From: a virus
Length of the DNA stretch: 64,000 nucleotides
Direction: 5' to 3' (one strand)
Virus record (IMG/VR): IMGVR_UViG_3300021963_000054
Coordinates: 40,952-104,951 of that record
Part shown: positions 1,444-41,647 of the stretch, piece by piece
Layout of the letters: the number at the start of each line of letters is the position of its first letter
Position numbering within the stretch: position 1 is the stretch's first letter
The notes under the pieces: generated by a model
Told to the model about the DNA's origin: nothing
Databases searched by the model: none
Seen by the model: only the letters and a program-made list of their open reading frames with translations
Program-made: the position numbers and the translations under genes

Positions 1444-1677
1444 ATGCTTGTGAAAGTTGAAGGTACCAATTTTATTAAAGATACCGGCACAAACGCCCTG
1501 TTGATGACGGGGCGGAATGCTTTGGTAGAAAATGAAGCAAGGAAAAAACTTGCCGATAGGATGAATGGCAAAAATAATGAGATAAATAACTTGAAGAATC
1601 AAGTGGAAGAATTGTCTTCGGATATGAAGGAAATTAAGTCCCTACTAAACGCATTGTTGAAACAGAGTAAAGAATAA
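1444..1677 (+). CDS. small coiled-coil virion-associated hypothetical protein
   Basis: 77 aa with heptad C-terminus (INNLKNQVEELSSDMKEIKSLL); its stop overlaps the next start (TAATG). Confidence 0.75.
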   Translation: MLVKVEGTNFIKDTGTNALLMTGRNALVENEARKKLADRMNGKNNEINNLKNQVEELSSDMKEIKSLLNALLKQSKE

Positions 1678-4600
1678 TGTCAATTAATAACATTACACGA
1701 ACAAATACGATTGATGAATGGCGCATCCAGACAAATCAATCTGCGACCGAACTTAATAAAATAGAGACTGGAAATTATGATAAATTTTCTGGCTCTCTTA
1801 ATATTGCATGTACCGCAGTTTTATCCATTACCGCTCAAGGAACTCCGCTTCAAGTTTCAAATAATGCACTAATTGGCACTCAACTTACCGTCGGTAAAGA
1901 TATTATTTTAGGTTCAGAAATATCTCAAACCGGTAATTTGTCAGTTGGCAATACAGTTTATATTTACGGTGGTGCAACGGCACTTTATGTTGCAAACAAT
2001 GTAATATCTAATGGCAGTCTTCTTGTTAGAAACACAATCACAACAAACAATGTAACCGTAAATTCAAACGTAGTTGTTGTGGGTACAGCAAACGCAGGAT
2101 ATTTAGGTGTAGCAAATAGTGGTTATGTTGGCACAACTTTAACTGTTATTGGAAATACAGCAGTTGGTAATTTGACAACCGCAAACTCAGTTGTTGCAGA
2201 CAATGGTCGCTTTAGTAATAACGTAACTGTAGAACATATCATAGCGGCTAATTCTGTTGTATCTTATGGCGCTAGAATAACCAATAACACAATTACAGGC
2301 AATTTAAATTCAACATCTGTTGTAGCTGATAATGCAAGAATCACAGCAAATGCTACAGCAACAGAAATAACTGTCACAACTCTAAATGCAACAAATGCTA
2401 GAGTGTCGGGAAATGCAAACGTTGCACACCTAACATCTTCTGGTTCTGTTGTTGCTGATAATGCAAGAATCACAGCAAATGCTACAGTTGCACACCTAAC
2501 ATCTTCTGGTTCTGTTGTTGCTGATAATGCAAGAATCACAGCAAATGCTACGGCAACTGAAGTAACTGTGACAACTTTAAATGCAACTAATGCTAGAATT
2601 TCAGCAAACGCAAACGTTGCACATCTAACATCTTCCAGCTCTGTTGTTGCAGACAATCTAAGAATAACAAGTCCAACTGCTTCTGCTAACATCAGCGGTA
2701 ACGTTATTGCCGGAAACGTAAATACACAAGGTATGGTGTATGCTGGTTCTTTAGTATCAGGTAAGACAGATGTTGGCGCATTAACTGTAACATCTTTAAG
2801 TACAGGTGGAGAGGCAACGGTTGGCGATTTAAATGTAACTGGCGATTTTGTATTGTCTGGTAGCATTGTTTATGATGCAGATATATTAACAATTAGCACT
2901 GCATCACCAATAACAACTACCGGAGAAGCATACTTTGGTGTATTCAGAGGAAATGATAAAGGCGGTGTATCTGGTGGATCTGGTGGCGCATCAGCAAATG
3001 CCAACGCATATATTCGCTGGAGTTCATCGGCTAACAACTGGCAAATTCGTGATGTATTCAATTCAGATTCCACAACAACATATTCCAAAATACTTACCGC
3101 AAATCTAATTACAACAAGTACTGCATCGGTAAGTAACAATGATTTTGCGTCTTCATGGTTAATGAAAAACTATGTTGATAATGCAAATACAAATCTAAAA
3201 AGTTACGTAGACACAAGTGCTATTCAAACAGCGGCTGCAAATGCTGGATTACTTGGTATCAATTTAAGCGCAAACATTGGTGCCGCTAGAATTGCTGATA
3301 CCGCAAATTCTGGTTTGGGCGATATCATTGTAATGGGTCGTGCTAATGGCGCATTTGGTGTTGCTAATCTCGCATCAAATACATTCAACGGAACATCAGG
3401 TTCTGCGGCACCAAGTAACGGCATAATTTCGTTTACAAGCACGAATGGTGTCACATTAGTCGGTGCGTCTAATACCATTACTGTTAATACGCCACAAGAT
3501 GTAAGAACAACGGCAAGTCCAACATTTAGCGGATTGACACTAACCAATGCTCTTCCTACATCACAAGGTGGTACAGGAGCAACTTCACCTGGCGGTGCGC
3601 TAACGAATTTATTACCAGCTGGCGGAACATCAGGATATGTTTTAGCGACTAGCGGATCAGGAACTTATTACTGGGCCGCTGGTGGTACTGGAGGTGGTGG
3701 TAGTGCAACTCCCGGTACAACAATTGTTTCAACGAGAACAACACCAACTGTTAATGCATCACAAAGAATATTCGCAACACCTATCTATCAAACTGGTACA
3801 GGTCAGTTAAGAGTTTTTATCAATGGTGTTAGACAGTTTGCATCCGAATATACTGAAGGCGCAAATAACTTAACAGGTGTGGCATCAGTATCATCAAATG
3901 GTTATTTTTCAACAACATCAGCAACTTCAACTCTTGTTGCTAACGCGGCTCTTGCGATTACTGGAACATTAACCGGAACAGGAACAATTACATCGTATGT
4001 TTCCGGAAAAACATATTATATAAGCAACATAAATGGCAATTTCTTCTCACTATCCGAAACTGTAGGTGGTGCGGCTATTACAACAACAGCAGGCACAACA
4101 ACTGGTCTTTCATTCACGACTGGACATAATGTAACATTAACAACTGGAACAAGTGCTGGTGATGCAATTTTACTTGAAGTTGATGCATACACGGTGAATC
4201 CTTATTACGCAAATAACATAGCATATGGACCTGTAACTGGCGAAATTGCCGCATCAGCAAATACCATTCAGTTGGCTATTGACAGTTTGGAATCAAGAAA
4301 GATTACAACAACAGCGGCACAAGCAAACGTTGGTGCTGGTCTAATTACAGTTACAAACGCATATCAAGCCAACGTTGGTGCGGCTAGAATTTCTGATGTA
4401 GCAACACTTCAAGCAAATACTGGTGCATTAAGTATTGGTTTAACTAATGAAATTTCTGGTAGACAAGCAAACGTAGGTGCGGCTGTAATCTCAGTCACAA
4501 ATGGTTATCAAGCAAATACAGGTGCAGTAAACATTGGTTTAAGTAACGAGATAACGAATAGACAAGCAAATACTGGTGCAGTAAACATTGGTTTAAGTAA

Positions 4601-5279
4601 CGAGATAACGAATAGACAAGCAAACGTAGGTGCGGCTGCAATTACTGTCACAAATGGTTATCAAGCAAATACTGGTGCAGCCTTAATTACTGCATTAAAT
4701 GCAAGTAACATTTCTTCGGGTACATTACCATCGGGTAGAATTTCTGGTTCTTATACTGGTATAACTGGCGTTGGTACACTCACAGCAGGGACTTGGAATG
4801 CCACTAGCATTAGTACAACATACACAGATGCTAAAGTAACTTCTGTTGCTAGTAAGACTGGAGCGGTTTCATTGGCGCAAGCGGACATTTCGGGATTAAC
4901 AACCGCCAGCAGTCCAACATTTGCTGGACTAACTATAAATGGCTCAATTACTGCTACTGGTGATATCACAGCTGGTTACTCGGATGATAAACTAAAAACA
5001 AGATTGGGTAATATTGAGAATGCTCTTGATAAAGTCTCGGCTATTTCAGGATTCTTCTATGAGCCAAATAAAACAGCACAAGATTTAGGTTTTGAAGTTA
5101 AGAGAGAAGTTGGTGTATCTGCACAAGAAGTTCAAGCAATTATGCCAGAAGTTGTTGTTCCTGCTCCAATAGATAATCAATACTTAACTGTTTACTATGA
5201 AAAACTTATTCCTCTGTTGATTGAAGCTATTAAAGAATTGAGAGCAGAAGTTGAAGAAATAAAAGGACAAATTAAATGA
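1677..5279 (+). CDS. long tail fibre protein with C-terminal intramolecular chaperone (peptidase S74-like) domain
   Basis: 1200 aa, N/T/A/G-rich beta-helix-like repeats and QANxGA repeats. C-terminal YSDDKLK...ALDKVSAISG...VGVSAQEVQAIMPEVV...YEKLIPLLIEAIKEL autocleavage signature. Confidence 0.85.
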   Translation: MSINNITRTNTIDEWRIQTNQSATELNKIETGNYDKFSGSLNIACTAVLSITAQGTPLQVSNNALIGTQLTVGKDIILGSEISQTGNLSVGNTVYIYGGATALYVANNVISNGSLLVRNTITTNNVTVNSNVVVVGTANAGYLGVANSGYVGTTLTVIGNTAVGNLTTANSVVADNGRFSNNVTVEHIIAANSVVSYGARITNNTITGNLNSTSVVADNARITANATATEITVTTLNATNARVSGNANVAHLTSSGSVVADNARITANATVAHLTSSGSVVADNARITANATATEVTVTTLNATNARISANANVAHLTSSSSVVADNLRITSPTASANISGNVIAGNVNTQGMVYAGSLVSGKTDVGALTVTSLSTGGEATVGDLNVTGDFVLSGSIVYDADILTISTASPITTTGEAYFGVFRGNDKGGVSGGSGGASANANAYIRWSSSANNWQIRDVFNSDSTTTYSKILTANLITTSTASVSNNDFASSWLMKNYVDNANTNLKSYVDTSAIQTAAANAGLLGINLSANIGAARIADTANSGLGDIIVMGRANGAFGVANLASNTFNGTSGSAAPSNGIISFTSTNGVTLVGASNTITVNTPQDVRTTASPTFSGLTLTNALPTSQGGTGATSPGGALTNLLPAGGTSGYVLATSGSGTYYWAAGGTGGGGSATPGTTIVSTRTTPTVNASQRIFATPIYQTGTGQLRVFINGVRQFASEYTEGANNLTGVASVSSNGYFSTTSATSTLVANAALAITGTLTGTGTITSYVSGKTYYISNINGNFFSLSETVGGAAITTTAGTTTGLSFTTGHNVTLTTGTSAGDAILLEVDAYTVNPYYANNIAYGPVTGEIAASANTIQLAIDSLESRKITTTAAQANVGAGLITVTNAYQANVGAARISDVATLQANTGALSIGLTNEISGRQANVGAAVISVTNGYQANTGAVNIGLSNEITNRQANTGAVNIGLSNEITNRQANVGAAAITVTNGYQANTGAALITALNASNISSGTLPSGRISGSYTGITGVGTLTAGTWNATSISTTYTDAKVTSVASKTGAVSLAQADISGLTTASSPTFAGLTINGSITATGDITAGYSDDKLKTRLGNIENALDKVSAISGFFYEPNKTAQDLGFEVKREVGVSAQEVQAIMPEVVVPAPIDNQYLTVYYEKLIPLLIEAIKELRAEVEEIKGQIK
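2421..2552 (+). repeat. 66-bp in-frame tandem duplication (VAHLTSSGSVVADNARITANAT x2) within a wider ADNARIT repeat tract
   Basis: 2421-2486 and 2487-2552 are identical except for the last base. Confidence 0.9.
4320..4679 (+). repeat. 8 QAN(V/T)GA repeats with 15/18-residue spacing, including a 54-bp tandem duplication
   Basis: 4509-4562 and 4563-4616 differ at 1 nt; motif spacings are 15,15,18,15,18,18,15. Confidence 0.9.
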
Positions 5280-6922: not shown

Positions 6923-7255
6923 ATGGCTGCATTTTCAGAAATCGTTATAGAGCAAGGCGCAACATTCAACACTACAATTAATGTTGAAGATACAGCTGGA
7001 GCCGCAATTAATCTTTATGGTTATACTGCAAACTCCATGATGCGTAAATCATACTATTCCTCAAGCGCAACAACAATTACATCTACAGTAACTGGCACAG
7101 CAAATGGTGAAGTAACCCTTTCCGTAACTGCGGCTAATACTGCGGCATTAACTCCCGGAAGATATGTGTATGATGTTATCATTACATCTCCAACTTCCGT
7201 TGTCACACGGGTTGTTGAAGGAATTGTTACTGTTCTACCTTCAGTTACGAGGTAA
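6923..7255 (+). CDS. conserved T4-like structural protein (IEQGATF family)
   Basis: 110 aa with IEQGATF...GRYVYDV...RVVEGIVTV.PSVTR, a beta-rich family recurrent in T4-like tail regions. Confidence 0.7.
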   Translation: MAAFSEIVIEQGATFNTTINVEDTAGAAINLYGYTANSMMRKSYYSSSATTITSTVTGTANGEVTLSVTAANTAALTPGRYVYDVIITSPTSVVTRVVEGIVTVLPSVTR

Positions 7256-7257
7256 TT

Positions 7258-7512
7258 ATGGTCACAGCTAGAATCAATACTCCAGGAGTGATTGGTAAAG
7301 TTGCTGTTCGCCCAAATCAAAGAACAACAATTGCAGATCCAAAGTTTATTCCTAAACCAAATGTTGGTTTAGTTGAATTGTATGATACCACAGTTGATGC
7401 TCCGGAAGAGGGCGATGTTATCGCATATGTGGCTAGCACAGGAAAGTTTGAGAATCAGCCACTCGGTAACGTAAGTGTTCAAGTTCCAAGGATAAATGGC
7501 GGAGCTTTTTGA
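7258..7512 (+). CDS. small structural protein ending in INGGAF
   Basis: 84 aa, L.EL.DT....EGDVIAY....GKFEN fibre-linker motif, C-terminal GGxF. Confidence 0.65.
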   Translation: MVTARINTPGVIGKVAVRPNQRTTIADPKFIPKPNVGLVELYDTTVDAPEEGDVIAYVASTGKFENQPLGNVSVQVPRINGGAF

Positions 7513-7523
7513 CTTACCAAATT

Positions 7524-7531
7524 CATAAATA
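7524..7531 (+). promoter_or_regulatory. T4-type late promoter variant (CATAAATA)
   Basis: 7/8 match to TATAAATA in an intergenic gap upstream of a structural gene. Confidence 0.55.
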
Positions 7532-7566
7532 GAAGAATAAGAAGATTCCACAATTAAGGAACGATA

Positions 7567-9216
7567 ATGGCAAATACAGTAATCCAGTTAAAATATTCCA
7601 GCATAACCAACAAACCGCCTACACTTAATGTAGCGGAACCAGCATACTCTAGTGTATCCGAAACTCTTTGGATTGACAATGGAACTGGTGTCGTAGCGAT
7701 TGGCGGTAAAGCATATACTGACAAAATTGATGCGGCTGCCTCAGCGGCGACAGCTAACGTTCTTGTTAAGAGAGATACTACAGGTAACGCATCTTTCAAT
7801 TACATCACTGCTAACATTGTTGGTAGCATTTATGGTAATGCAACAAGTGCAGACAAATGGTATACTCCTAGAGATATTGGTGTTTCCGGTGATGCAACAG
7901 GTATCGTTTCTGTTGACGGTACAGCAAACGCTAATATTCCATTAGTTCTTTCCAACTCTGGTGTGGCTGCTGGAAATTATGGTGGTGCAACAAATGCCGC
8001 AGTAATTTCTGTAGACACAAAAGGTCGTGTAACATACGCGGCTAACGTTCCGATTTCTTCTACACTAAACTTCTCGGGCGATATTGGTGCGGCTCCAGGA
8101 ACATTATCTCTAATCTCCGATACCCTAACAATCAAGGGCAGTCTAAACGGCGGTATCAGTACCAATGCTGTTGATGCAAACAATACAGTACTTGTTAATG
8201 TTGATAATACTGTTCTTAGAAATTCTGGAAATCAATTTATCTCCGGCGACTTGTCATTAACAGGAAGTTTGTTTGTTGCTGGTAATACCACAACAGTGGA
8301 TACTACAACAATATCAACAGCAGACTCTTTAATTAGACTAGGCGCAAATAACACAGTAAGCGATGTTCTAGATATTGGTTTCTATGGCAAAGCAAATACA
8401 GGCACAGAAGTAACTCATCACGGTCTTGTTCGTAGAGCAGGAACTGGTAATGACTTCTTCTTGTTCAAAAATTTAAATACTGATCCAACAGCAAACGTTC
8501 TTGCTACAGGTTCAGTAACGGCTGCTAATACCGCAACATTAAGGGCTAACCTAACTGGCGGTATGATTTCCGCTCTTGCTAATACTATTGGTGTTGTTGA
8601 CGGTGGTACTGGCGCAGGCACATTTGCGACTGGTAGCATTCTAGTTGGTGATGGAACAAACTCATTAAAAGTACTAGCTAATACCGGTACAGCAGGAGCA
8701 TATGGTTCTGCATCTAATACATTAATTGTTACCACAGATGCGTATGGTCGTGTGTCAGCTATTACAAATAGTGCAATTCAAATTGATGCTTCAAACATCG
8801 TATCTGGTAATTTAGCAATTAATAGAGGCGGCACAAACAACGATTCTTACACAACTGGTGCCGCAGTATTCTATGATGGTACTGCAATTAAGACATTAGC
8901 AAATACTGGCACAGCAGGAACTTATGGTTCAGCATCTTATGTTCCTGTGGTTACAACTGATGCTTTAGGTCGTGTTTCGGGTGTAAGCAATACTGCAATC
9001 AATATTGATACAAGCGCAGTCGTTTCCGGCACACTAGGTATCGCAAGAGGCGGTTCAGGAGCATCTTCATTCTCAGTTAAAGGTGTTATCGTTTCTGATG
9101 CGGCATCAACAACTGGTGCATTGTCTGCATTGACTTCACCAACCGAAGGTCATCTATTACAAATTAATTCATCTGGAGCACCAACTTTTGCACACCTAAA
9201 TGGTGGAACATTCTAA
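7567..9216 (+). CDS. tail fibre-like protein with Mtd-N-like N-terminus
   Basis: 549 aa: MANTVIQLK..PPTLNVAEPAY N-terminus, repeated AG.YG.A....V.TD..GRV units, C-terminal LNGGTF; RBS AAGGA. Confidence 0.7.
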   Translation: MANTVIQLKYSSITNKPPTLNVAEPAYSSVSETLWIDNGTGVVAIGGKAYTDKIDAAASAATANVLVKRDTTGNASFNYITANIVGSIYGNATSADKWYTPRDIGVSGDATGIVSVDGTANANIPLVLSNSGVAAGNYGGATNAAVISVDTKGRVTYAANVPISSTLNFSGDIGAAPGTLSLISDTLTIKGSLNGGISTNAVDANNTVLVNVDNTVLRNSGNQFISGDLSLTGSLFVAGNTTTVDTTTISTADSLIRLGANNTVSDVLDIGFYGKANTGTEVTHHGLVRRAGTGNDFFLFKNLNTDPTANVLATGSVTAANTATLRANLTGGMISALANTIGVVDGGTGAGTFATGSILVGDGTNSLKVLANTGTAGAYGSASNTLIVTTDAYGRVSAITNSAIQIDASNIVSGNLAINRGGTNNDSYTTGAAVFYDGTAIKTLANTGTAGTYGSASYVPVVTTDALGRVSGVSNTAINIDTSAVVSGTLGIARGGSGASSFSVKGVIVSDAASTTGALSALTSPTEGHLLQINSSGAPTFAHLNGGTF

Positions 9217-9238
9217 ATTATAATGAAAGGATTTTATT

Positions 9239-9799
9239 ATGGATGTGAGATTACAAAATGCTTATGTAGAGGTTTTGCTTGGCAATTTTATGGAAGTTGT
9301 CAAGCAGAATTTAATGTTTCAAGCACAAATTGAAGTAAATAAGAATAGTTTACAAGAAGCAGAAGATTCAGTAAGAAGATTAAAAGAAGTTTCTGAAGCG
9401 AATATAACATATCAATCTCAACTTGTTGAAAAAGATAAAATTATAAATGAGTTAACGAGCGAAAGAAATAACCTAAAAAGTTCTTCAGGAAATAATGATT
9501 CTTTGAAACAAGAAAAAGATAGATTGCAAAGTGCAGTCAATGACTACATGAGACAATTAAAATCTGCACAACAAGAAGTATTGACGGTTAAGAGTGAATC
9601 TCAAAATGTTTTATTACAAAACAATAATCGGATTGAAGAACTCACTAAATATGTTGCAAGATTGGAAACTGTAGTTCCGGCAAACAAACTTAAAAAAGTT
9701 AAACTTGGTGAAGTTATTCAACCTGATACTTCAGAGATTACAGTTGAAGAACCTGTTCTTCCAATTGATGATGTTGTGAAATCTGGCGGAACATTCTAA
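9239..9799 (+). CDS. coiled-coil protein ending in KSGGTF
   Basis: 186 aa, E/Q/K/L-rich heptads; RBS AAGGA. Confidence 0.75.
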   Translation: MDVRLQNAYVEVLLGNFMEVVKQNLMFQAQIEVNKNSLQEAEDSVRRLKEVSEANITYQSQLVEKDKIINELTSERNNLKSSSGNNDSLKQEKDRLQSAVNDYMRQLKSAQQEVLTVKSESQNVLLQNNNRIEELTKYVARLETVVPANKLKKVKLGEVIQPDTSEITVEEPVLPIDDVVKSGGTF

Positions 9800-9809
9800 G
9801 ATTCGGTAA

Positions 9810-10919
9810 ATGGCAAATACAGTAATTCAATTAAAAAATTCGGGAGCATCAGGTAATACACCAAGCACATTAGCGCCGGGTGAATTGGCTATTAACTATG
9901 CCGATGGTAAACTGTATTATGGTAATCAAGTAAATACTCCAATTCTATTTGATGTTATAACTGAGCCTACCGGACTAAATCAAGAAATTCAATTTAATGA
10001 TTCTGGTGCATTTGGCGCATCAGCAAATCTAAAATTTGATAAAACAACAAAAACTTTAACTACCGATAAAATTGTTTCGGCGAATATTGAAGTTTCATCA
10101 AACTTAGTTGCTGATAATGTAATTGCACATACAGCATTGTATGTTGGCATTGCAGATATTTCCCACACTCCTCTAGCGAACTCATTAGGGTACTTCACAG
10201 GAAATTCTTCTCCGTATGTTCAAGTAAACATTGAGAATATTGATCCAGATGGTTCGGCTGATTGGGTTGCTACTGCTGACGTTGGTAGCGATTCAACATT
10301 CTACACAGACGTAGGTATTCAAAACTCAGGCAATTCAGATGGAACAATTAAACCACTAGATGGTTATTTGTTAGTACAAGGTAACACAGGTCAAATTGGT
10401 GGCAATCTTATAATTGGTACCATCTCTGGAACACCAGGGCAAGAAATTCGTGTTGTCGTTGATGGCAATGAAGATGCGAATGTAGTCTTAAAAATTAATT
10501 CTTCTGGTTTGCAGATGGTCAGAGGTGATATCACAAGTAATGTCACCACAAGAATTAGTAACGTTTCAAACTCAGCATTTGCACAAGCAAACTTAGCATA
10601 CAACGCAGCCAATTCCGCAGTAACGACAGGACAAGCCAACGTAGGCGCAGGATTAATTGTTGTTACTGGAAGAACAAATTTAGCATACGATAAAGCAAAT
10701 GCCGCATATGATTATGCTAATACACTTATAACAGGTGGTGCTTCTGGTGATTATTTTCCAACAAGTTCATATGGTTTCGTGTCTCAAAGTATAATTGCTC
10801 TTGTTTCGGATGACACATTCATACAGGGAGAATTAACTGGACCAGTTTATGATTGTTCAGATAATCCAATAACTCCCGAAGGCTTTTACTTGGAAAAAGA
10901 CCTTGGCTATTTAACGTAA
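9810..10919 (+). CDS. tail fibre-like protein with Mtd-N-like N-terminus
   Basis: 369 aa: MANTVIQLKNSG...PSTLAPGELAINYADGKLYY, IQFNDSGAFGAS linker, QANLAY repeats, ends DLGYLT. Confidence 0.7.
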   Translation: MANTVIQLKNSGASGNTPSTLAPGELAINYADGKLYYGNQVNTPILFDVITEPTGLNQEIQFNDSGAFGASANLKFDKTTKTLTTDKIVSANIEVSSNLVADNVIAHTALYVGIADISHTPLANSLGYFTGNSSPYVQVNIENIDPDGSADWVATADVGSDSTFYTDVGIQNSGNSDGTIKPLDGYLLVQGNTGQIGGNLIIGTISGTPGQEIRVVVDGNEDANVVLKINSSGLQMVRGDITSNVTTRISNVSNSAFAQANLAYNAANSAVTTGQANVGAGLIVVTGRTNLAYDKANAAYDYANTLITGGASGDYFPTSSYGFVSQSIIALVSDDTFIQGELTGPVYDCSDNPITPEGFYLEKDLGYLT

Positions 10920-10927
10920 CATAAATA
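10920..10927 (+). promoter_or_regulatory. late promoter variant (CATAAATA)
   Basis: Immediately after a stop codon, upstream of the 10951 gene. Confidence 0.55.
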
Positions 10928-10950
10928 GATTGATAATTTAAGGATATTAA

Positions 10951-12759
10951 ATGCCAACGCAATTACAGTTAAGAAGAGGAAATACAGCGCAGACTGCAAC
11001 ATTTACTGGAGCAGTGGCTGAGATTACCGTTGACACAGATAAGAAAACAGTTGTTGTTCACGACGGCACAACAGCTGGTGGTTTTGCTCTTGCTTTAGAA
11101 TCAGCACAGTTAGACCAATTTGCATTCACAAAAGCAAACTTAGCATTTGATAGAGCAAACTCAGCATTTGCTCAAGCAAATGCAGCCTATGATACAGCTA
11201 ACACAAAATTCAATTCTGCTGGCGGTACAATTTCTGGTAATGTAATCGTAACTGGTAACGTAACTCCAACAACAGATAATGTTTACAGTTTAGGTTCAGC
11301 AGGAAATCGTTGGAAAGATTTGTTTGTTGGACCAGGTTCAGTCAACATTGATGGTATTGTTATCGGAAACACTGGCGGGAATATTGTAATTAGTGGCGCA
11401 TCTGATTTTGTTTTTCAACCCACAGGTGGCGCACCTTCAGTTTCTACTTCCGGTAGTGCTAACATCGCACTCAACGCATTCAATCAAGCTAACTTAGCAT
11501 ACAATCAAGCAAACGTTTCTTATGGTTCTTTTGCACAAGCTAATCTAGCATACAGTCAAGCAAACTCTGGAACTGGTATTGCAGTTTCCGCTTTTGCACA
11601 AGCCAACTTAGCTTATACCGCGGCTAATAATGCTGTAGACACTTGGGTTAGAAATCAAGCTAACACAGCATATGACCAAGCAAATAATGCATTCGCTCAA
11701 GCTAATCTAGCGTTTACGGCTGCAAATAATGCTGTAGACACTTGGGTTAGAAATCAAGCTAACACCGCTTATAATAGAGCAAACTCAGCATTCGCACAGG
11801 CTAACCTAGCTTACGATACAGCAAATGCCGCATTGCCAAAACTTGGTGGTACAATTACTGGTGACTTGACTGTTTCTGGTAACTTAGTTATTTCTGGTAA
11901 TACAACAACACTTAATGTTTCTTCATTGGCTGTTACTGATACTGTTATCCGATTAGGTACAGATAATCAAACCGACCTACTAGATATCGGTTTTGTTGGT
12001 CACTACGCTAATACGCCAAATAATCACACAGGTTTGATTCGTAAATTTAGCGATGGCAAATATTACTTGTTTGATAATTTGCAAACAGATAATGAGCCAA
12101 CTAATATTGTTGATATTGCAAACACAAGAGTTGCAACACTAAGCGCAAATCTAATCACGAACGTAATCTCATTGCGTGGACTTGATCCATTAGAATATTC
12201 AAATACAATTTATACTAATGCACAAGCAAATACAGGCAATGCAGTAATTACATTAACATCTGCTTATCAAGCAAACGTCGGTGCTGGACTTATTACTGTA
12301 ACATCAGATTATCAAGCAAACGTAGGTGCAGGTCTAATTACCAAGGTTGATAAAGCTGGTGATGTAATGACTGGCGGTTTGTCTGCTAACGGCGCAATAA
12401 TTGGCTCAAGTTTGACAGCAAACACTACAGCAACAATTAATACGAATGCTGTTTATGAATCTACTGCTGTAACAACTGCGGCCAATACTCAATTTACATT
12501 AGATTCATTTTCAACAACTGCATATCGTTCAGCTAAATATCTCGTTCAGATTTCTAGCGGTTCATCATATGAATTACTAGAAATGACTTTGATCCATGAT
12601 GGAACGACTGTGTATTTGTCTCAGTATGGTAACATTAAAACTGGTGCAACATTAGGTGTATTTGACGCTACAATTTCAACTGGTACTTTAAGTTTGTTAG
12701 CTACACCAAACAATGCAGTAACTACGTTCAAGACAGCTATAACTCTGATACCGACATAA
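10951..12759 (+). CDS. tail fibre protein with major-tropism-determinant N-terminal (Mtd_N)-like domain
   Basis: MPTQLQLRRG..FTGAVAEITVDTDKKTVVVHDG.TAGG; AFAQANLAY coiled-coil repeats (99-bp period repeat at 11626/11725); C-terminal YRSAKYLVQ..HDGT..QYG domain. Confidence 0.75.
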   Translation: MPTQLQLRRGNTAQTATFTGAVAEITVDTDKKTVVVHDGTTAGGFALALESAQLDQFAFTKANLAFDRANSAFAQANAAYDTANTKFNSAGGTISGNVIVTGNVTPTTDNVYSLGSAGNRWKDLFVGPGSVNIDGIVIGNTGGNIVISGASDFVFQPTGGAPSVSTSGSANIALNAFNQANLAYNQANVSYGSFAQANLAYSQANSGTGIAVSAFAQANLAYTAANNAVDTWVRNQANTAYDQANNAFAQANLAFTAANNAVDTWVRNQANTAYNRANSAFAQANLAYDTANAALPKLGGTITGDLTVSGNLVISGNTTTLNVSSLAVTDTVIRLGTDNQTDLLDIGFVGHYANTPNNHTGLIRKFSDGKYYLFDNLQTDNEPTNIVDIANTRVATLSANLITNVISLRGLDPLEYSNTIYTNAQANTGNAVITLTSAYQANVGAGLITVTSDYQANVGAGLITKVDKAGDVMTGGLSANGAIIGSSLTANTTATINTNAVYESTAVTTAANTQFTLDSFSTTAYRSAKYLVQISSGSSYELLEMTLIHDGTTVYLSQYGNIKTGATLGVFDATISTGTLSLLATPNNAVTTFKTAITLIPT

Positions 12760-12789: not shown

Positions 12790-14745
12790 TTGGCAACAAC
12801 AAGATTATCAACAGTAATTGGTAACGTCATTGTAGGCGCTACTGGACCTACGGGTCCAACAGGTCCCACTGGTCCTACACCATCAATTGGCGGTTCAAAC
12901 ACTCACATTCAATTCAACAATAGTGGTTCTTTAGGTGGATCTTCTAGTTTAGTTTGGAATGGTACAGGGTTGAGTGTTGCAGGAGATATATTTGCAACTG
13001 GCAATAAAATTATAGGTATTAACGGCACAGGAGTTGCTGCCGGTACTTTTGCTTTTAGAAATTCTTCGGGTGTACAAAAGTCTGCTATTGGTTCATATTA
13101 CAATATTGCGAATGAGGGGAACCTTGAGTTTATAAATGGCACAACCACTAGTATGGTGCTTAATTCTAGCGGTAACTTGGGTATTGGGACAAGTTCGCCT
13201 CAAGGCTCATTAGATGTTACGGCTACAGGTGCAACAGTTAATCAATTTTTGACTGGCGGCGGTGGTAACAATTCAGTAACAGGCATTTTTAGAATTGGCT
13301 CTGGCTCGGGTAGAGGTGCGAGTATCCAAGGCTTTCGTGGTGCATCTTCTAATATCCACAGCCTAGATTTCTACACATACAATTCCGCTGATGTTTTTGG
13401 TATGCGCCTTGATTCCAGCGGTAACTTGGGTATTGGTACAAGTTCTCCAGCGGCTGATTTAGAAATTAAACGAACAGGAGCAGTCAATGTTAAATTACAA
13501 GTAACTAGTGCTTATGAATCTGCATTATGGCTTGTAAATGGAGGAGGCTCTGAAGTAAGTGTTATTAACGCTGGAGGTAGTAATATACTTTCGTTTCGCA
13601 CTAACAACACCGAGCGTATGCGTATCGACTCCAGCGGTAACGTAGGATTAACAACATCTGCATATACTCTTGGCTCCTTGTTGCAATTGGGTCGAGTATT
13701 TTCTTTTGCTCAAGATATTAACAGTGGATATTTAGGCGCTGGCTGGGTTGGTGGGTCAGCGCCAACTTTTGCAGTCACGGGCAATTATGCAGTACGTGAA
13801 TATTTTGATAGTGCCCTAGGTACAATAGTTTGGCAGACGGCGGGAACAGGCACGGCAGGAAACGCAGTTGGTTTTGCCACAAGAATGACTCTCGATAACG
13901 CTGGTAACTTGGGTATTGGCACTACAACACCTTCAACTGGTAAATTTAGTGATGCGTCATATGCGTTTCTAAATCAATCTGCAAGCACTAGCACAGGCAC
14001 AAATATTTTTGCCAGCAATTCTGATAACTCAAAATATATTGGCTTATGGAGCGGACATTCAGGGGCAGAGCCTGCAATTGGTGTTAAGACTGGAAATGCA
14101 TTTACATTTGGTAAATGGGCGGCAATAAACGGAACTGGTGGTTTTACCGAAAATATGCGTATCGACTCTAGTGGCTCATTATTATTAGGTACAACAACTA
14201 ACCCAACATCTGGCAGTTTTCCTCGTCCCACTTTATCAATAAAACAGTTGAATGATTCAGGTAGCGGGTACACCGCTATGCATATTGAGGCATTTGGGGA
14301 TCAGTCAGTGCTTGGTATTGGTTATAACGGCGATGTTTTTGCATTTAGTACGTCATACCGCGGCACAGGAGCTTACCGAGGTATATCTTTCAACACAAGT
14401 GGTACTGAAAGAATGCGTATCGACACCAGCGGTAACTTTAGCATTACTCAAACACCTGGTAAATACACAGTTGACGTAACTGGAGGAGCTACCAGTATTG
14501 CTAACGGCGGCACAGTTGATTTTCCTAGTGCGTCAGGAATGCTAGTAGTGAATAATTGGTTAAATGGAGCCGTAACACTATACCTTTGCGGTGGCGGATC
14601 AGTAACTGTAGTTTCAAACGTCATTGCTCAAGCTGGATCTTTTGCTTATAACAGTGGTATTGGTGGGTATACTTGGACTAATAATGTTTATGGTGGAACT
14701 GCTACATTTGGGTTCTTCTTTGTCCGAACAAGAACAACAGCCTAA
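12790..14745 (+). CDS. mosaic tail fibre protein (short collagen plus ERMRIDSSGN repeats)
   Basis: 651 aa, TTG start; GPT triplets; six M(R/V/T)(I/L)(D/N)xxG(N/S) repeats separating variable modules. Confidence 0.75.
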   Translation: MATTRLSTVIGNVIVGATGPTGPTGPTGPTPSIGGSNTHIQFNNSGSLGGSSSLVWNGTGLSVAGDIFATGNKIIGINGTGVAAGTFAFRNSSGVQKSAIGSYYNIANEGNLEFINGTTTSMVLNSSGNLGIGTSSPQGSLDVTATGATVNQFLTGGGGNNSVTGIFRIGSGSGRGASIQGFRGASSNIHSLDFYTYNSADVFGMRLDSSGNLGIGTSSPAADLEIKRTGAVNVKLQVTSAYESALWLVNGGGSEVSVINAGGSNILSFRTNNTERMRIDSSGNVGLTTSAYTLGSLLQLGRVFSFAQDINSGYLGAGWVGGSAPTFAVTGNYAVREYFDSALGTIVWQTAGTGTAGNAVGFATRMTLDNAGNLGIGTTTPSTGKFSDASYAFLNQSASTSTGTNIFASNSDNSKYIGLWSGHSGAEPAIGVKTGNAFTFGKWAAINGTGGFTENMRIDSSGSLLLGTTTNPTSGSFPRPTLSIKQLNDSGSGYTAMHIEAFGDQSVLGIGYNGDVFAFSTSYRGTGAYRGISFNTSGTERMRIDTSGNFSITQTPGKYTVDVTGGATSIANGGTVDFPSASGMLVVNNWLNGAVTLYLCGGGSVTVVSNVIAQAGSFAYNSGIGGYTWTNNVYGGTATFGFFFVRTRTTA

Positions 14746-15071: not shown

Positions 15072-15094
15072 AATATGGCATCTAATCAAGACTT
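15058..15094 (+). repeat. 37-bp exact repeat of cassette leader and start (copy 2 at 21645-21681)
   Basis: acaagactatataaaatatggcatctaatcaagactt at both sites; the 20-nt coding part is also at 23736. Confidence 0.95.
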
Positions 15095-16064
15095 CATCAT
15101 AAAGAATGGGCTAACAGTTGGCTCATCGCAAGTGATTGCAGCCAATGGTCGTTGGGTTGGTGCCAACACAGGACTTATTGGTCCACAGGGAAGTGCTGGT
15201 CCTGCAGGTCCTCAAGGCGCTCAGGGAGCAACTGGTCCACAGGGAGCGGCTGCACCTTGGACAGTAATTACAACAAACACTACTGCAACATCAGGTCAAC
15301 AATTAATTGCAAATACTTATACTGGTGGATTCATAGTAACATTACCAGCTTCACCTTCAGTTGGTAATGTAGTTAGAATTACCGATGGTTATGATTGGTC
15401 AGTAAATAATTTAACTATTGCGGGTAATGGAAGTACAATTGAAAATTCAGTTAATGATTTGTTAGCTGACGTTAGAGGAACAACAATTGAACTTGTTTAT
15501 GATAGTTATACATGGCAAGTTGTATCAACGATTGGTCCAACAGGACCTACCGGCGCAACAGGACCAACGGGTCCAACAGGTCCGCAAGGAGCACAAGGAC
15601 CAGGCGGACCAACTGGACCTACTGGCGCACAAGGATTGACTGGTTCTACTGGACCAACAGGACCGCAAGGTGCCCAAGGCGCACAAGGTCCTACTGGCGC
15701 AACAGGACCAACTGGTGCTCAAGGTGCTCAAGGTCCAACAGGAGCAACAGGTCCGACAGGCCCAGCTGGACCACAAGGATCTACTCCACCAATTAATGGT
15801 TCAAACACGAATATTATTTTTAATAATGCTGGCACTTTAGCTGGCTCTAATAATTTTACATGGAATGGTTCAAAAGTAACTGTAACCGGTGAGAATCATG
15901 CGAATGTTCATGTAGCAACAAATGGAATTGTAGTGAACAGTTTAAATGTAGCAACTAGTTATACAATTGCGGCTGGCTATTCCGGCACATCAGCTGGACC
16001 AATTACCGTGAATTCTGGCGCAACAGTTACTATAGCGTCTGGTTCACGCTGGGTAATAGTTTAA
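15075..16064 (+). CDS. collagen-like fibre protein with T4 gp10-like adaptor domain
   Basis: [13 protein letters not shown] anchor, two G-X-Y tracts flanking a [26 protein letters not shown] domain, C-terminal [22 protein letters not shown]. Confidence 0.75.
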
Positions 16065-21661: not shown

Positions 21662-23191
21662 ATGGCATCTAATCAAGACTTTATTGTAAAAAACGGTTTA
21701 ACAATCGGCAGCTCACAAGTAATTGCCGCTAACGGTCGTTGGGTTGGTGTCAGCACAGGATTAATTGGTCCTCAAGGCGCACAGGGAGCCCAAGGTTCTC
21801 AAGGCGCAACAGGACCGACCGGACCTCAGGGAGCACAGGGAGCAACAGGTGGAACTGGTCCCACTGGTCCTCAAGGCGCTCAAGGTGCAACTGGAGGAAC
21901 TGGACCAACTGGACCTCAAGGTGCTCAAGGAGCACAAGGTCCCGCTGGACCAACTGGACCACAAGGCGCACAGGGAACACAAGGCGCACAAGGAAGTGCT
22001 GGACCTCCTGGTCCTACTGGTGCACAGGGACCAACTGGCGCACAGGGACCAACTGGTGCTCAAGGTCCGACAGGTGCTACAGGACCAACAGGTCCAAGCA
22101 GCTGGTCAGCAATACCTGCTGGTACTAGAACCAACTATGATTTAAAATTTCAACCCAACAATGCTGACTATGCAGGATTTCAGTTTTTAAACGATGCTGG
22201 CTCGGGAGCTGGGTATCTGTTAGTTCGGTCTACTTCATCCGATAGCTTTCCACCCTATACAGCGGGCGGAATAACGCTTGTTTCAGACGTTGGCGGGTTA
22301 AACTTTTTTGCGAGAAGTGGAACCCAACTTGTAAGGATGGGGACGGGAAGCACCGAAACCTTTAGGCTCGAATCAAATTATTCACTGTCTATCAACAGCT
22401 CCCGTGCACCAATCTTCTACGACTACAACAACACTGGGTATTACACTGACCCAGCCAGCACGTCAAATATGTATAATATAACTGTTCGTTCTGGCAGTCC
22501 ATACGCAGCCGTTACAGATTTAGGATATGTATCTCCTATACAAGTCAGCGAAACAGGAACAGGAACAAACTCAGACCGATATGTTCCGATGATTTCAGGA
22601 ACATCAACATCTTCTTCAGGTTATAGACAACATACTGTTTTTGGTTCTTTAAGAGGTTCTGTTTGGGGTTCCGCTTTTATTGCAGTTGGTGGTAACGACT
22701 CTTATCCGACTGTAGCATACACTTTTCACTATACTGGATATGGAACTGCTCCAGATTCTTGGAGAGCACCAATCTTCTACGACTCCAACAACACCGGGTA
22801 TTACACTGACCCAGCCAGCACATCAGTTTTGAATGGACTAACAGTTGGTGGTGGAACTATTGCAACAACATCAGGCTCTCCTTCATACTATATGGCTAGA
22901 GCATGGGTAAATTTTGACGGTGCGGGAAGCATCCGGGCGCAAGTTAACGTGTCATCAATTTCTAAAAGTACTACAGGTACGTACCAAATAAATTTTGCAA
23001 CTGCAATGCCAGATGCAAACTACGTAATGTCATATTCAAATAGCTATTTGTCGCCCGCATCTAACTCAAATGCTCCAGGCGGTGCGGCGGCGCCATACAC
23101 GGCTTCGGTCGGAAGTGTTTGCTCTTACCAATCACAAGCGGTAGGAAATTTAACTGATAATACTTATCAGTTGGTAGTAGTTTATAGATAA
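21662..23191 (+). CDS. collagen-like tail fibre protein
   Basis: [13 protein letters not shown] anchor, about 36 G-X-Y triplets, two [19 protein letters not shown] repeats, C-terminal ARAWVNFDG domain. Confidence 0.8.
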
Positions 23192-23501: not shown

Positions 23502-23746
23502 TTACTATTAATATTGACAAAGCAAAAAATATTGCTCACGAAAAACGTAGAATTGCCAGGGCTGCTGAATTTACTCCTTTAGACATTAAAGCAACTATTC
23601 CATCGGAATCAGTAGTCGCAGAGGCAGCTAGACAAATTATTAGAGATAAGTATACTGAGATACAAATAGGAATTAATTCTTCTGCCACCATTGATGAAAT
23701 TAAAAATGAGATGGATAAATTTTCAGATAAATTAAATGGCATCTAA
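23498..23746 (+). CDS. fibre-associated small helical protein
   Basis: 82 aa [25 protein letters not shown]; ATGA overlap. Confidence 0.7.
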
Positions 23747-25151
23747 TCAAGACTTCATCGTAAAGAACGGCCTCACAATAGGCAGTTCACAAGTAATTGC
23801 AGCCAATGGTCGCTGGGTTGGTGCTAACACAGGACTTTTTGGTCCTCAAGGCGCAACAGGACCTCAAGGCGCACAGGGAGCAACTGGTCCAACCGGCGCT
23901 CAAGGTCCTACTGGTCCAACTGGCGCACAGGGAGCAACTGGTCCCACTGGTCCTACTGGTCCACAAGGCGCACAGGGTCCAACAGGAAGTACTGGACCAA
24001 CTGGACCTCAAGGAGCACAAGGCGCACAGGGAGGTGCTGGACCAACAGGACCTCAAGGAGCACAGGGACCAACTGGCGCTACGGGACCAACGGGACCCAC
24101 TGGACCTTCTGGCGCATCAATCTTAGGATCAAGCAATACTTGGACAGGTGGAAATTACTTTCGTTCTAATTTGGGAGCAACTTCCGGAAGTTTAAATAGT
24201 CCACCTTTACAAGCATATTCAGATAGCAATAACTCTGCTTTTATGTCTTTTCACAAAGGTGGAGTATATGCAGTAAACATGGGACTGGACTCCGATAACA
24301 TATTGCGTATTGGTGGTTGGTCTGCTTCAGCGAATCGTTGGGAATTGGATATGTCTGGAAACAATTGGGCAGCCAGTTCGTTCAGAGCAACAAGCTGGTA
24401 CTACTCCAGTGACACCGCATATGGATTTATCGGGACTAACGTATATGCAGATACAATTAATTCTGGCGTGGGTGGCGACCAATTAGAATTATGTTATTAC
24501 AGAGGTTCATTTACTTCTTCATCTGGTAGTATGCGAGCACCTTTGTTTTATGATAGAGATGACACTGGATATTATCTTGATCCAAATACTACAAGCGATT
24601 CTGCATTGAGAATTCGTGGCGGTGCTTTACATGGTCCAAATCCTACTTGGGGATCTTACCTTTTAGTTGGCGGTGATGGAAGACAGAATTATACTAACAG
24701 CGGTTCAGTAGCATCTGTTTGTTCAACAAATGGCAATTTGCACATGGATGCAGCCTCTGGTTATCAAATGTACTTAAACTATTATGATGGCGACGGAATT
24801 AACTTTGGTAATGGCGCAAATGGTGTTCACAGCACCTTATCTAGCGCAGGTAACCTTGCATTGGGCGGGACAGTAACGGCCACAAACCTTATCGGACAGT
24901 CTCAAACTTGGCAAAATGTGGTGGGCAGCAGGGCGGCAGGCACCTTGTACACCAACAGCACATCACGTCCAATAACCGTAATAATTTGCTGTGCTTATGG
25001 GCAAAGTAATATGACTGTGTATGTTGACAGTGTGGCGTTTCTTGTAACAGGTCCATATGGAAACAGCGTAATTTTGTCTGCAACACTAATTGTTCCACCA
25101 GGATCTACATACAAGGCAGATAGTGTAAGTTATTGGATGGAACTTCGCTAA
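23736..25151 (+). CDS. collagen-like tail fibre protein
   Basis: Third [13 protein letters not shown] paralog; about 30 G-X-Y triplets; AFMSFH..G.YA.NMGLD.DN and RAPLFYD modules; C-terminal [17 protein letters not shown] domain. Confidence 0.8.
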
Positions 25152-40630: not shown

Positions 40631-41647
40631 ATGGCTACAAATAAACTTTTTGAGGCGGCTGCTGAGATTCTTGCATCAGGCAAGGGTAAGAATGCTATGC
40701 CTCCAGAAAAGCTACCTGGCGAACAAGTTGATGCTGGTGGACCAACCCCACAAAATGCAAAACAAGACGATGACTCGCACAAAATTACTCCCGCATCAAA
40801 GAGTGCTACAGCACCTGCGACTAAGCCTTCTGCGGCTTCTGCTAAACAAGAAGAAGTAGAAGTTGAGGGCGAAGTTGTTTCAGAGGAACAAGTTGAAGAA
40901 GTTGAACTAAATCTTTCCGAAGATATCAACGCCTTGTTTGCTGATGACAACACAATCTCAGAAGAATTCAAACAAAAAGTTACCACAATTTTTGAAGCCC
41001 GTGTCCTTGACCGCGTTAAACAAATTGAGGAAGAAACTGAATCTCGCTACGCATCTATGCTAGAAGAAGCAGTTGAAGCAGTTAAAGAAGACTTGACCGA
41101 AAAAGTAAATGACTATATTGCTTATGTGGTTGAGCAGTGGATGGCAGACAATGAAATTGCAATCGAAAAAGGCATTCGTGCTGAATTGACAGAAGATTTC
41201 ATCTCTGGTCTACGTAATCTATTTGCAGAACACTACATTGATGTTCCTGCTGAAAAAGTTGACCTCGTTGACGAAATGGCTACCAAGATTGATGAATTGG
41301 AAGGCAAGTTAAACGAGGAAGTTGAGCGTTCAGTACAGTATCGTAAAGAACTAGTTGAGGCTCACAAAGTAGAAGTTACCCGTGAAGTATGTGAAGGTTT
41401 GACCGACACTCAAGTTGAAAAAATTAAAGCACTTGCAGAGAGTGTAGAGTTCTCCACAGAGGAAGAATACAAACAAAAACTTGAGACAATTCGTGAAAAT
41501 TATTTCCCTTCTGGTGTAAAGAAGGCTGATGAAGCCCAACTTCACGAACAAGTGTCTGACGATGTTGATACCAAGAAACAACAAGTTTCTAGCGATGCAT
41601 TCGTTAACTCTATTGTTCAATCAATTTCAAAAACAACCCGATTCTAA
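40631..41647 (+). CDS. gp22: prohead scaffold protein gp22
   Basis: SEEFKQKVTTIFEA, YVVEQWMADNEIAIE.GIR.E, LFAEHYIDVP, KLETIRENYF. Confidence 0.93.
   Translation: MATNKLFEAAAEILASGKGKNAMPPEKLPGEQVDAGGPTPQNAKQDDDSHKITPASKSATAPATKPSAASAKQEEVEVEGEVVSEEQVEEVELNLSEDINALFADDNTISEEFKQKVTTIFEARVLDRVKQIEEETESRYASMLEEAVEAVKEDLTEKVNDYIAYVVEQWMADNEIAIEKGIRAELTEDFISGLRNLFAEHYIDVPAEKVDLVDEMATKIDELEGKLNEEVERSVQYRKELVEAHKVEVTREVCEGLTDTQVEKIKALAESVEFSTEEEYKQKLETIRENYFPSGVKKADEAQLHEQVSDDVDTKKQQVSSDAFVNSIVQSISKTTRF

Follow-up and report, generated by a model that had tools for sequence, protein, structure and literature searches.

How the products of adjoining tail-fibre genes with matching end motifs are put together is the question raised by this locus, a region from an uncultured T4-like marine phage in which five such genes lie side by side (IMG/VR record IMGVR_UViG_3300021963_000054, positions 40,952 to 104,951; this whole stretch of 64,000 nucleotides is referred to below as the window, and coordinates count from its first letter). 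Marine T4-like phages carry many fibre genes, and their long-fibre genes have no recognisable similarity to T4 gp34–37. From the sequences of the protein termini, we consider it probable that the motifs are head-to-tail docking joints of one composite tail fibre, operating by predicted contacts between a short C-terminal peptide (the ‘plug’) of one protein and an N-terminal ‘cap’ of the next.

Terminal motifs of the fibre cassette

Reading along the plus strand, on which all genes described here lie, the cassette opens with a conserved gene for a 110-amino-acid protein (6923–7255) that matches phrog_1084 (2.4e-26) and phrog_3304, ‘L-shaped tail fiber protein assembly’ (1.1e-21). Its homologue sits directly 5' of the adaptor gene in seven relatives (L002, L010, L012, L014, L015, L027 and L028), and its counterpart in Pelagibacter phage HTVC008M, gp061, adjoins an adaptor-like gene downstream; the protein is possibly an anchor or collar for the fibre. 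The adaptor itself (7258–7512; 84 aa) ends in ...PRINGGAF*, with the plug INGGAF at 7492–7509, and has no N-terminal cap. It finds no relative in Pfam, PHROG or the PDB, and belongs to a family of 842 homologues at E<=0.001, from which alignment A7 was built.

Fibre A (7567–9216; 549 aa) starts MANTVIQLKYS and ends ...HLNGGTF*, with a MANT-type cap at 7567–7716 (cap-profile match, E 5.9e-21) and the plug LNGGTF at 9196–9213; its orthologues range from 430 to 754 aa and keep the ..F.HL.GG[TS]F end. There follows a coiled-coil connector (9239–9799; 186 aa) ending in ...VKSGGTF*, the plug KSGGTF lying at 9779–9796. This protein is built from a conserved N-terminal head (MDVRLQNAYVEVLL..), a coiled coil of variable length, a proline-containing tail and the plug; an alignment of 28 sequences (A3) has M1, Y9, L142, G183 and F186 invariant, and the coiled coil spans 154–267 aa among orthologues. 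Residues 30–145 contain no proline at all, and their 3.5-residue hydrophobic periodicity was reached by 0 of 500 shuffles. Neither Pfam nor PHROG holds a family for the connector, and its Atlas neighbours are viral hypothetical proteins only.

Fibre B (9810–10919; 369 aa) starts MANTVIQLKNS and ends ...KDLGYLT*, with a MANT-type cap at 9810–9959, in which 13 positions are invariant across 28 sequences (alignment A4), and the plug DLGYLT at 10,899–10,916; orthologues run from 163 to 1071 aa and retain a D[YLF]G.[LVI] end. Last comes fibre C (10,951–12,759; 602 aa), which starts MPTQLQLRRG, carries an Mtd_N cap at residues 6–41 (10,966–11,073) and ends ..ITLIPT, with no plug; its orthologues (354–1742 aa) have diverse C-terminal parts, and we propose that it is the distal, receptor-binding member. 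The gaps between successive genes, from the adaptor to fibre C, are 54, 22, 10 and 31 nt. The same five-gene cassette recurs in many diverged IMG/VR phages, with the termini kept and the bodies varying in both length and sequence.

Most of these features had been picked out in an earlier note on this DNA, which described three consecutive proteins with a shared end, two MANTVIQLK starts each placed directly after a GGxF-ending gene, and bodies unrelated to one another. The translations agree on all of this, as does the DNA for the shared ends (INGGAF, LNGGTF and KSGGTF); the bodies comprise a coiled coil in the connector and a tail-fibre PHROG match in fibre A, with adaptor and connector assigned to no family. 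Among 119 genes called crudely across all 104,951 bases of the record, GGxF ends are confined to these three ORFs, against 0.03 such ends per record expected from amino-acid composition (three in succession, P ~3e-9). The peptide is also kept far beyond this phage, the best 120 of the 842 adaptor homologues, down to ~30% identity, all ending [GA]G.[FY] with x free (120/120). This invariance covers just 4–6 residues.

The arrangement of the pieces follows a chain logic, and it holds: the adaptor has a peptide only, the middle members have a cap or head together with a peptide, and fibre C has a cap only. Under the reading that we favour, the five proteins would be segments produced individually and then coupled head to tail in the order of their genes, giving a linear fibre of adaptor, A, coiled-coil hinge, B and C that would be comparable to the long tail fibre of T4, the 110-aa protein possibly anchoring it. 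The plug would comprise the five or six C-terminal residues of the protein encoded upstream, present in three copies if that protein is trimeric; the socket would be the first ~45 residues of the downstream protein, forming a small beta-rich cap like those that top the Mtd trimer and begin T4 gp37. Two flavours of plug may be distinguished: [DN]-G-G-x-[FY]-COOH, which precedes either a MANT/K-x-S cap or the connector's helical head, and D-[YLF]-G-x-[LVI], which precedes R-R-G (true Mtd_N) caps. Where plug touches cap, as we suppose it does, the invariant terminal aromatic and the free carboxylate would occupy a pocket of the cap, perhaps against a conserved basic residue, with the GG pair allowing a tight approach of the backbone and the variable x facing solvent. 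The joint between fibre A and the connector is a guess, since the plug of fibre A precedes a coiled-coil head rather than a cap.

Relations of the N-terminal caps

A profile of the cap domain, run over the record, finds exactly three caps: those of fibres A, B and C. The earlier note had labelled all of them Mtd-N-like, a description that stands for fibre C and fits the other two less well. Fibre C, which follows the DLGYLT end of fibre B as the note had said, is a true Mtd_N protein, matching Pfam PF18454 with 51.7 bits (E 8.4e-14; cut-off 26.3; 57.5 bits in a six-frame search) and, through residues 1–78, the PDB entries for Mtd (1YU0/1YU2; E 5e-15). The MANT-type domains of fibres A and B lie outside that family, with no match to PF18454 at E<=0.1; 3 of 31 related caps do match, the best at E 0.0096, which is below the cut-off. 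Aligned profile to profile (hhalign, A6 against A5), MANT caps and Mtd_N are in register across 41 columns with a probability of 38% and E 3.3e-4, a weak link.

The MANT caps do match T4 gp37. A profile made from fibre B caps alone reaches gp37 residues ~7–47 at E 1.1e-5 among 4785 ORFs, and a mixed cap profile finds the gp37 N-terminus at E 2.3e-9. A tblastn search with the fibre B cap retrieved gp37 starts from hundreds of T-even records, at weak E-values only, and a scan of genome contigs returned one truncated match. AlphaFold2 monomers were too weak to fix a fold, given the low pLDDT (66 for the MANT cap; 58 for the adaptor, with its plug below 50) and the non-significant Foldseek rows against the PDB, headed by phage HylP, the A-1(L) fibre and Mtd, all at E>0.3.

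We also asked for the joint itself. When three copies of the fibre B cap (A4) were predicted in complex with three copies of the C-terminal 82 residues of the connector (A3), the score was 0.41; one unrelated control scored 0.61, and the prediction therefore weighs on neither side of the question of binding. In the copy of the PDB searched there is no solved complex of plug and cap, the T4 joint included, and no entry for T4 gp36; for Mtd_N caps it offers isolated Mtd only, and for MANT caps nothing real. The gp37 N-terminal query matches there just a gp34 chain, through query residues 98–150, which lie outside the cap, and RecA.

Pairing of plugs with downstream starts

As a check on its idea that a GGxF or DxG peptide is followed by an Mtd-N-like domain, the earlier note had put forward gene-order statistics. 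Our count takes in 449 unique adjacent gene pairs, classed by regular expression and derived largely from one conserved cassette. Behind GGxF ends (n=92) the next gene starts with a K-x-S cap in 48 cases, a coiled-coil head in 24 and an R-R-G cap in 2; the remaining 18 were unclassed, and inspection by eye showed 13 of these to be caps and 3 to be coiled-coil heads that the expressions had missed. D[YLF]Gx[LVI] ends are succeeded by an R-R-G (Mtd_N) cap in 32 of 35 pairs and by a K-x-S cap in 0 of 35. Other ends have a cap next in only 10 of 322 pairs, with a coiled-coil head in 2 more. Viewed from the cap, 39 of the 48 unique genes lying 5' of an Mtd_N gene end D[YLF]G.., as against 2 of 476 background ORFs.

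The association is thus far from random, also across diverged phages, and to that extent the note's rule is borne out; it fails at one of the four joints in the window, where the GGTF of fibre A precedes the helical head of the connector. Finer subtypes of plug follow the downstream start from lineage to lineage, NGGxF going with LNVAEPA caps, K[SD]GG[ST]F with SG..GN caps and HL.GGTF with coiled-coil heads. The two-flavour code is not strict: T4 combines DFGYY with a K-x-S-type cap, and two of the relatives (L103 and L106) combine LDGGTY(S/N) with an R-R-G cap.

Most of these pairs come from a single conserved cassette, and so they lack phylogenetic independence; conserved synteny could by itself yield adjacency of plug and cap. 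This leaves room for the termini being independent folding or trimerisation caps, which would co-occur through one syntenic fibre operon with plug and cap never touching, an explanation that we rate as unlikely. On this view the peptide would start or finish the trimer in the manner of the fibritin foldon, and the N-terminal domain would close off the opposite end. Fibres commonly require C-terminal trimerisation elements, a need that speaks in its favour. T4 fibritin, with its foldon, and gp37 are examples (PMC3004832). The invariant stretch here is restricted to its handful of residues, and in the connector it sits on a proline-rich tail of variable length, an odd setting for a folding nucleus. 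Independent folding elements also sit poorly with the distribution of the parts, the adaptor and connector having the peptide without an N-cap and the distal fibre the reverse, which is what a chain needs; and the partners at the equivalent position of T4, gp36 and gp37, are known to bind.

Equally improbable in our estimation is that the peptides are docking tags used out of gene order, the GGxF ends binding a common acceptor (the 110-aa protein, a baseplate protein outside the region or an assembly chaperone) or any cap at all, giving branched or alternative fibres. Four plugs are set against three caps in the record, a count that is provisional since the record is ~61% complete; no cap lies downstream of the fibre A plug, three near-identical GGxF plugs could compete for one cap, and other phages are known to have branched fibre systems (PMC13730344). 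Against a shared acceptor, a given subtype of plug keeps to one kind of N-terminus downstream from lineage to lineage, and the T4 genes 34-35-36-37 lie in the order in which their products are arranged along the fibre.

Recombination linkers at the DNA level, through which modules would be shuffled with no role for the encoded peptide, are the explanation of the shared gene ends that has the least to commend it, and we reject it: within this genome the GGTF ends of fibre A and the connector do share gg(t/c)ggaacattctaa (14 of 15 nt identical) and the MANT starts agree at 25 of 27 nt, but relatives write the invariant Gly, Gly and Phe freely with all synonymous codons (GGT/GGC/GGA/GGG and TTT/TTC), which points to selection on the peptide and not the DNA, and the x position, the flanks and the intergenic spacers (-17 to 70 nt) vary as well, placing the conservation at the level of the protein.

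Comparison with known fibres

Docking in series at plug–cap joints, the reading that we prefer, has its closest parallel in T4, where the gp36 trimer binds to gp37 in its N-terminal region (PMC3004832). There, gp36 ends ..VQDFGYY and gp37, after a spacing of 8 nt, starts ..IQFKRS..GELAINL; in the window, fibre B ends DLGYLT 31 nt 5' of the cap-bearing fibre C, the same joint at the level of motifs. The T4 long tail fibre is likewise assembled head to tail from several distinct proteins whose genes lie in order, as we propose for the window. T4 differs in having one such joint as against three or four putative ones in succession here, and no GGxF ends (gp34 closes with ..EWVE and gp35 with ..FREV); the place taken in the window by a coiled-coil connector is filled in T4 by gp35, a monomeric kneecap. 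There is no homology between the bodies either, tblastn against the phage collection giving no match.

BPP-1 is a podovirus-like temperate phage, and a retroelement diversifies the C-type-lectin fold that forms the body of its Mtd. Fibre C matches Mtd strongly through its first 50 residues, and the BPP-1 tail-fibre gene Bbp9, which ends ..ADLGGIA, lies directly 5' of mtd, whose product is located at the fibre ends (PMC2408619). This is a single joint, unlike the proposed series in the window, and the body of fibre C is unrelated to that of Mtd; no retroelement was seen next to 10,951. In HTVC008M, the one phage of the collection reached by tblastn with Mtd_N at E<=1e-3, gp063 ends ..VDLGSVA and is followed by an Mtd_N protein. 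For the fibre genes as such, neither megablast nor tblastn found a match in cultured phages.

The earlier note had likened the joints to donor-strand complementation in pili, with the peptides captured as strands. Chaperone-usher pili use an extension at the N-terminus as donor; it fills out an Ig fold that is otherwise incomplete, and a dedicated chaperone and usher take part. The resemblance of the window to this goes no further than the broad notion of one subunit being completed or occupied by a terminal peptide of another; the peptide here is C-terminal, and its proposed acceptor is a trimeric N-terminal cap. Pfam and PHROG scans of the region's nine or ten proteins found no pilin, chaperone or usher family, and with none of its defining features present we reject a pilus-like mechanism, strand capture having been pure conjecture. 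There are also solved cases of a fibre docking onto a short segment of another protein: podophage A1002 has multi-protein, chain-like fibres (PMC13730344), and the long tail fibre of A-1(L) is anchored by a C-terminal loop of the wedge protein gp32 (PMC10966104). Other proteins and motifs are involved in both, with no GGxF or D-x-G-x-hydrophobic code described, and our literature searches found no published description of a code of plugs and caps.

If the motifs are indeed connectors, the proximal, distal and hinge proteins of such fibres could be deduced from sequence, the atomic basis of the gp36–gp37 joint in T4 could be tested by mutating five residues, and receptor-binding modules might be exchanged between phages at defined joints; the free swapping of fibre bodies with assembly preserved would also be accounted for. 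Rather more speculatively, and with somewhat less than even confidence, we suggest that a general plug/cap code, readable in sequence, may set the order of fibre proteins across many tailed phages, T4 gp36–gp37 and BPP-1 Bbp9–Mtd among them, with at least two largely orthogonal flavours preventing mis-assembly and the coiled-coil head as a third acceptor that would form a flexible knee. Were this so, the order, length and branching of fibres would be predictable from genomes, and fibres could be re-wired by five-residue swaps.

Among the relatives, all Mtd_N caps stand at the start of their ORF. We looked for in-frame fusions of a plug with a following cap, and the sole internal cap-like segments, in fibres of L014 and L062, have no preceding plug; a cap with no adjoining plug gene exists in the giant protein of Synechococcus phage S-CAM7, an observation that speaks against the docking reading. 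At the other extreme of size, some relatives encode proteins of 65–78 aa that are little beyond a cap and a plug (for instance L014:7217-7453).

End motifs of the fibre cassette

The source record, IMG/VR IMGVR_UViG_3300021963_000054, is linear, 104,951 bases long and of an estimated 61% completeness, the window being its bases 40952–104951; nearly every gene of the record lies on the + strand. As its major capsid protein is 63–64% identical to counterparts in T4-like cyanophages (e.g. P-TIM40, S-WAM1), we take the phage to be an uncultured T4-like marine myovirus.

Working along the cassette in gene order, we see in both translation and DNA that three successive ORFs—a small ‘adaptor’ (7258–7512), ‘fibre A’ (7567–9216) and a coiled-coil ‘connector’ (9239–9799)—end in a GGxF peptide (INGGAF, LNGGTF and KSGGTF respectively), as the earlier note had described. 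Both ORFs starting MANTVIQLK, fibre A and ‘fibre B’ (9810–10919), do indeed lie directly downstream of a GGxF-ending gene; fibre B itself ends DLGYLT and is followed, again as described, by a protein (‘fibre C’, 10951–12759) in which residues 1–50 form a genuine Mtd_N domain (Pfam E 8.4e-14; PDB Mtd E 5e-15). Across the whole record GGxF ends are confined to these three ORFs (chance expectation 0.03; three in a row by chance, P ~3e-9), and there are exactly three N-terminal ‘cap’ domains. The 186-aa connector is a coiled coil, proline-free between residues 30 and 145 and with a heptad periodicity matched by 0/500 shuffles; a proline-containing tail then terminates in the GGxF peptide.

The MANT-type caps (‘K-x-S’ type) fail the Pfam test for Mtd_N (‘R-R-G’ type), to which hhalign links them weakly (probability 38%); a fold search with an AF2 model of moderate quality returned HylP, the A-1(L) fibre and Mtd, rows that fit thematically, all non-significant.

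Conservation and pairing in relatives

Relatives gathered from IMG/VR with three queries (the fibre B protein, the 84-aa adaptor and the Mtd_N cap) comprise 109 loci. Their cassette opens with a 110-aa protein, followed by an adaptor of 65–90 aa ending [ND]GG.F; fibre A, running from MANTVIQLKYS..LNVAEPA to F.HL.GG[TS]F; the coiled-coil protein, its conserved head being MDVRLQNAYVEVLL, MGNEKYLNYYVEIL or MSVEFSNAYQE and its end K[SD]GG[ST]F or DGS[ST]F; fibre B, running from MANT.[IL]QLK.SG..GN.P..L..GEL to D[YLF]G.[LVI]; and fibre C, starting M.TQ.Q.RRGNTAQT (Mtd_N). A similar cassette is present in Pelagibacter phage HTVC008M. The bodies vary greatly (fibre B 163–1071 aa, fibre C 354–1742 aa; large insertions in the coiled-coil protein), the termini being kept throughout. 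Some lineages carry extra 65–78-aa proteins with little beyond a cap, MANT[TV]IQILRSY.., and a C-terminal ‘plug’, [VI]DGG[GN]F (L014:7217–7453, which runs from MANTTIQILR to IDGGNF; L094:784–984; L104:1219–1416; L071:1163–1360); these look like minimal extension links. They sit between a 74-aa LDAG[FE]F protein and fibre A.

The shared gene ends might instead be DNA recombination linkers, and paralogous ends within this genome are almost identical in DNA. Across relatives, however, all synonymous codons occur for the invariant glycine pair and the Phe, at least eleven different residues are found at x, and the best 120 of 842 database adaptor homologues, down to ~30% identity, all end [GA]G.[FY]; plug conservation is thus at the protein and not the DNA level, which argues against such linkers.

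Plugs are also matched to what follows them. The D[YLF]G.[LVI] end closes 39/48 unique genes directly upstream of Mtd_N genes, versus 2/476 other ORFs. We classed 449 unique adjacent gene pairs by regular expression, the pairs being phylogenetically non-independent, so that the counts represent one conserved rule rather than many independent origins. After 92 GGxF ends the next N-terminus is a K-x-S cap in 48, a coiled-coil head in 24 and an R-R-G cap in two, with 18 classed as ‘other’, 16 of which are by eye regex misses (13 caps, three coiled-coil heads); D[YLF]G ends precede an R-R-G cap in 32/35 and a K-x-S cap in 0/35, and the remaining 322 ends a cap in only 10 and a coiled-coil head in two. 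Orthogonality between the two plug–cap flavours is incomplete: T4 joins DFGYY to a K-x-S cap, and two relatives join DGGTY(S/N) to an R-R-G cap. In the latter (L103:4773–4976 and L106:4773–4976), an exception to the two-flavour pairing, a 67-aa protein with the R-R-G-type cap MAARVKLRRGT and the end LDGGTYS or LDGGSYN precedes a further R-R-G cap. In Synechococcus phage S-CAM7 (L114:8992 onward, MT586120.1) a cap stands without an adjoining plug gene, on a giant protein of >4000 aa. This cap, at the N-terminus, is of K-x-S type (MISSETKILLKRSG..GELGINYYDGKVY); the upstream genes are unrelated and none has a plug end.

A probable chain of docked fibres

The adaptor carries a plug without a cap, fibres A and B combine a cap with a plug, the coiled coil pairs its head with a plug, and fibre C, variable in its C-terminal part, bears a cap without a plug: the distribution that a linear proximal-to-distal chain requires. 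The same pair of motifs recurs at known joints. In T4, gp36 ends ..VQDFGYY and gp37 starts MATLKQIQFKRS..GELAINL, and the gp36 trimer attaches to the N-terminal part of gp37 (PMC3004832); a profile built from window-type fibre B caps alone matches this N-terminus at E 1.1e-5 among 4785 ORFs, and a mixed cap profile at E 2.3e-9. BPP-1 has mtd directly after the tail-fibre gene bbp9, which ends ..ADLGGIA, Mtd being located at the tail-fibre ends (PMC2408619), and in HTVC008M gp063 (..VDLGSVA) precedes the Mtd_N protein gp064. PDB searches found no solved structure that includes gp36, a partner-bound gp37 N-terminus or a peptide-bound Mtd_N cap.

Taken together, the sequences make docking joints the best explanation of the paired ends, and a probable one; the earlier note's proposed mechanism, capture of the peptide as a strand by analogy with pili, found no support. 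Its rule that each plug meets an Mtd_N-like domain covers three of the four joints, because a coiled-coil head comes after the fibre A plug; from gene order, our guess is that this head is the acceptor. Multi-protein head-to-tail fibres are already known from T4; the plug/cap pair and its generality appear undescribed in the literature searched.

A candidate anchor gene and neighbouring fibres

The 110-aa protein (6923–7255, + strand; phrog_1084, and phrog_3304 ‘L-shaped tail fiber protein assembly’) may serve as the anchor or collar of the chain. In relatives its gene always lies immediately upstream of that for the adaptor; a sequence search of the PDB gave no relative. The HTVC008M counterpart is gp061 (L111:3612–3950). 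The adjacent gp062 (L111:3975–7037) fuses an adaptor-like N-terminus (MAIKAKITSTNSAG..VSVTV) to a 1020-aa fibre ending ..ERALFSF, not GGxF, so the adaptor can be the start of a long protein.

After fibre C lies a 651-aa fibre (12790–14745, + strand, TTG start) with the N-terminus MATTRLSTVIGNVIV and then collagen-like GPT triplets. This N-terminus resembles that of the adaptor, MVTARINTPGVIGKVAV; a second type of N-terminal attachment motif may be common to both, with the 110-aa protein or the baseplate as its possible target. Three collagen-like fibres in the same region (15075–16064, 21662–23191 and 23736–25151, all + strand) start alike, with MASNQDFI(I/V)KNG, and then diverge, forming another, distinct family with an N-terminal anchor in common. 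A 1200-aa fibre (1677–5279, + strand) matches long tail fibre distal subunit PHROGs over its C-terminal 160–470 residues (E to 1e-22); downstream of it are a 393-aa fibre with a Phage_fiber_2 repeat and a 148-aa protein weakly like tail-fibre assembly chaperones.
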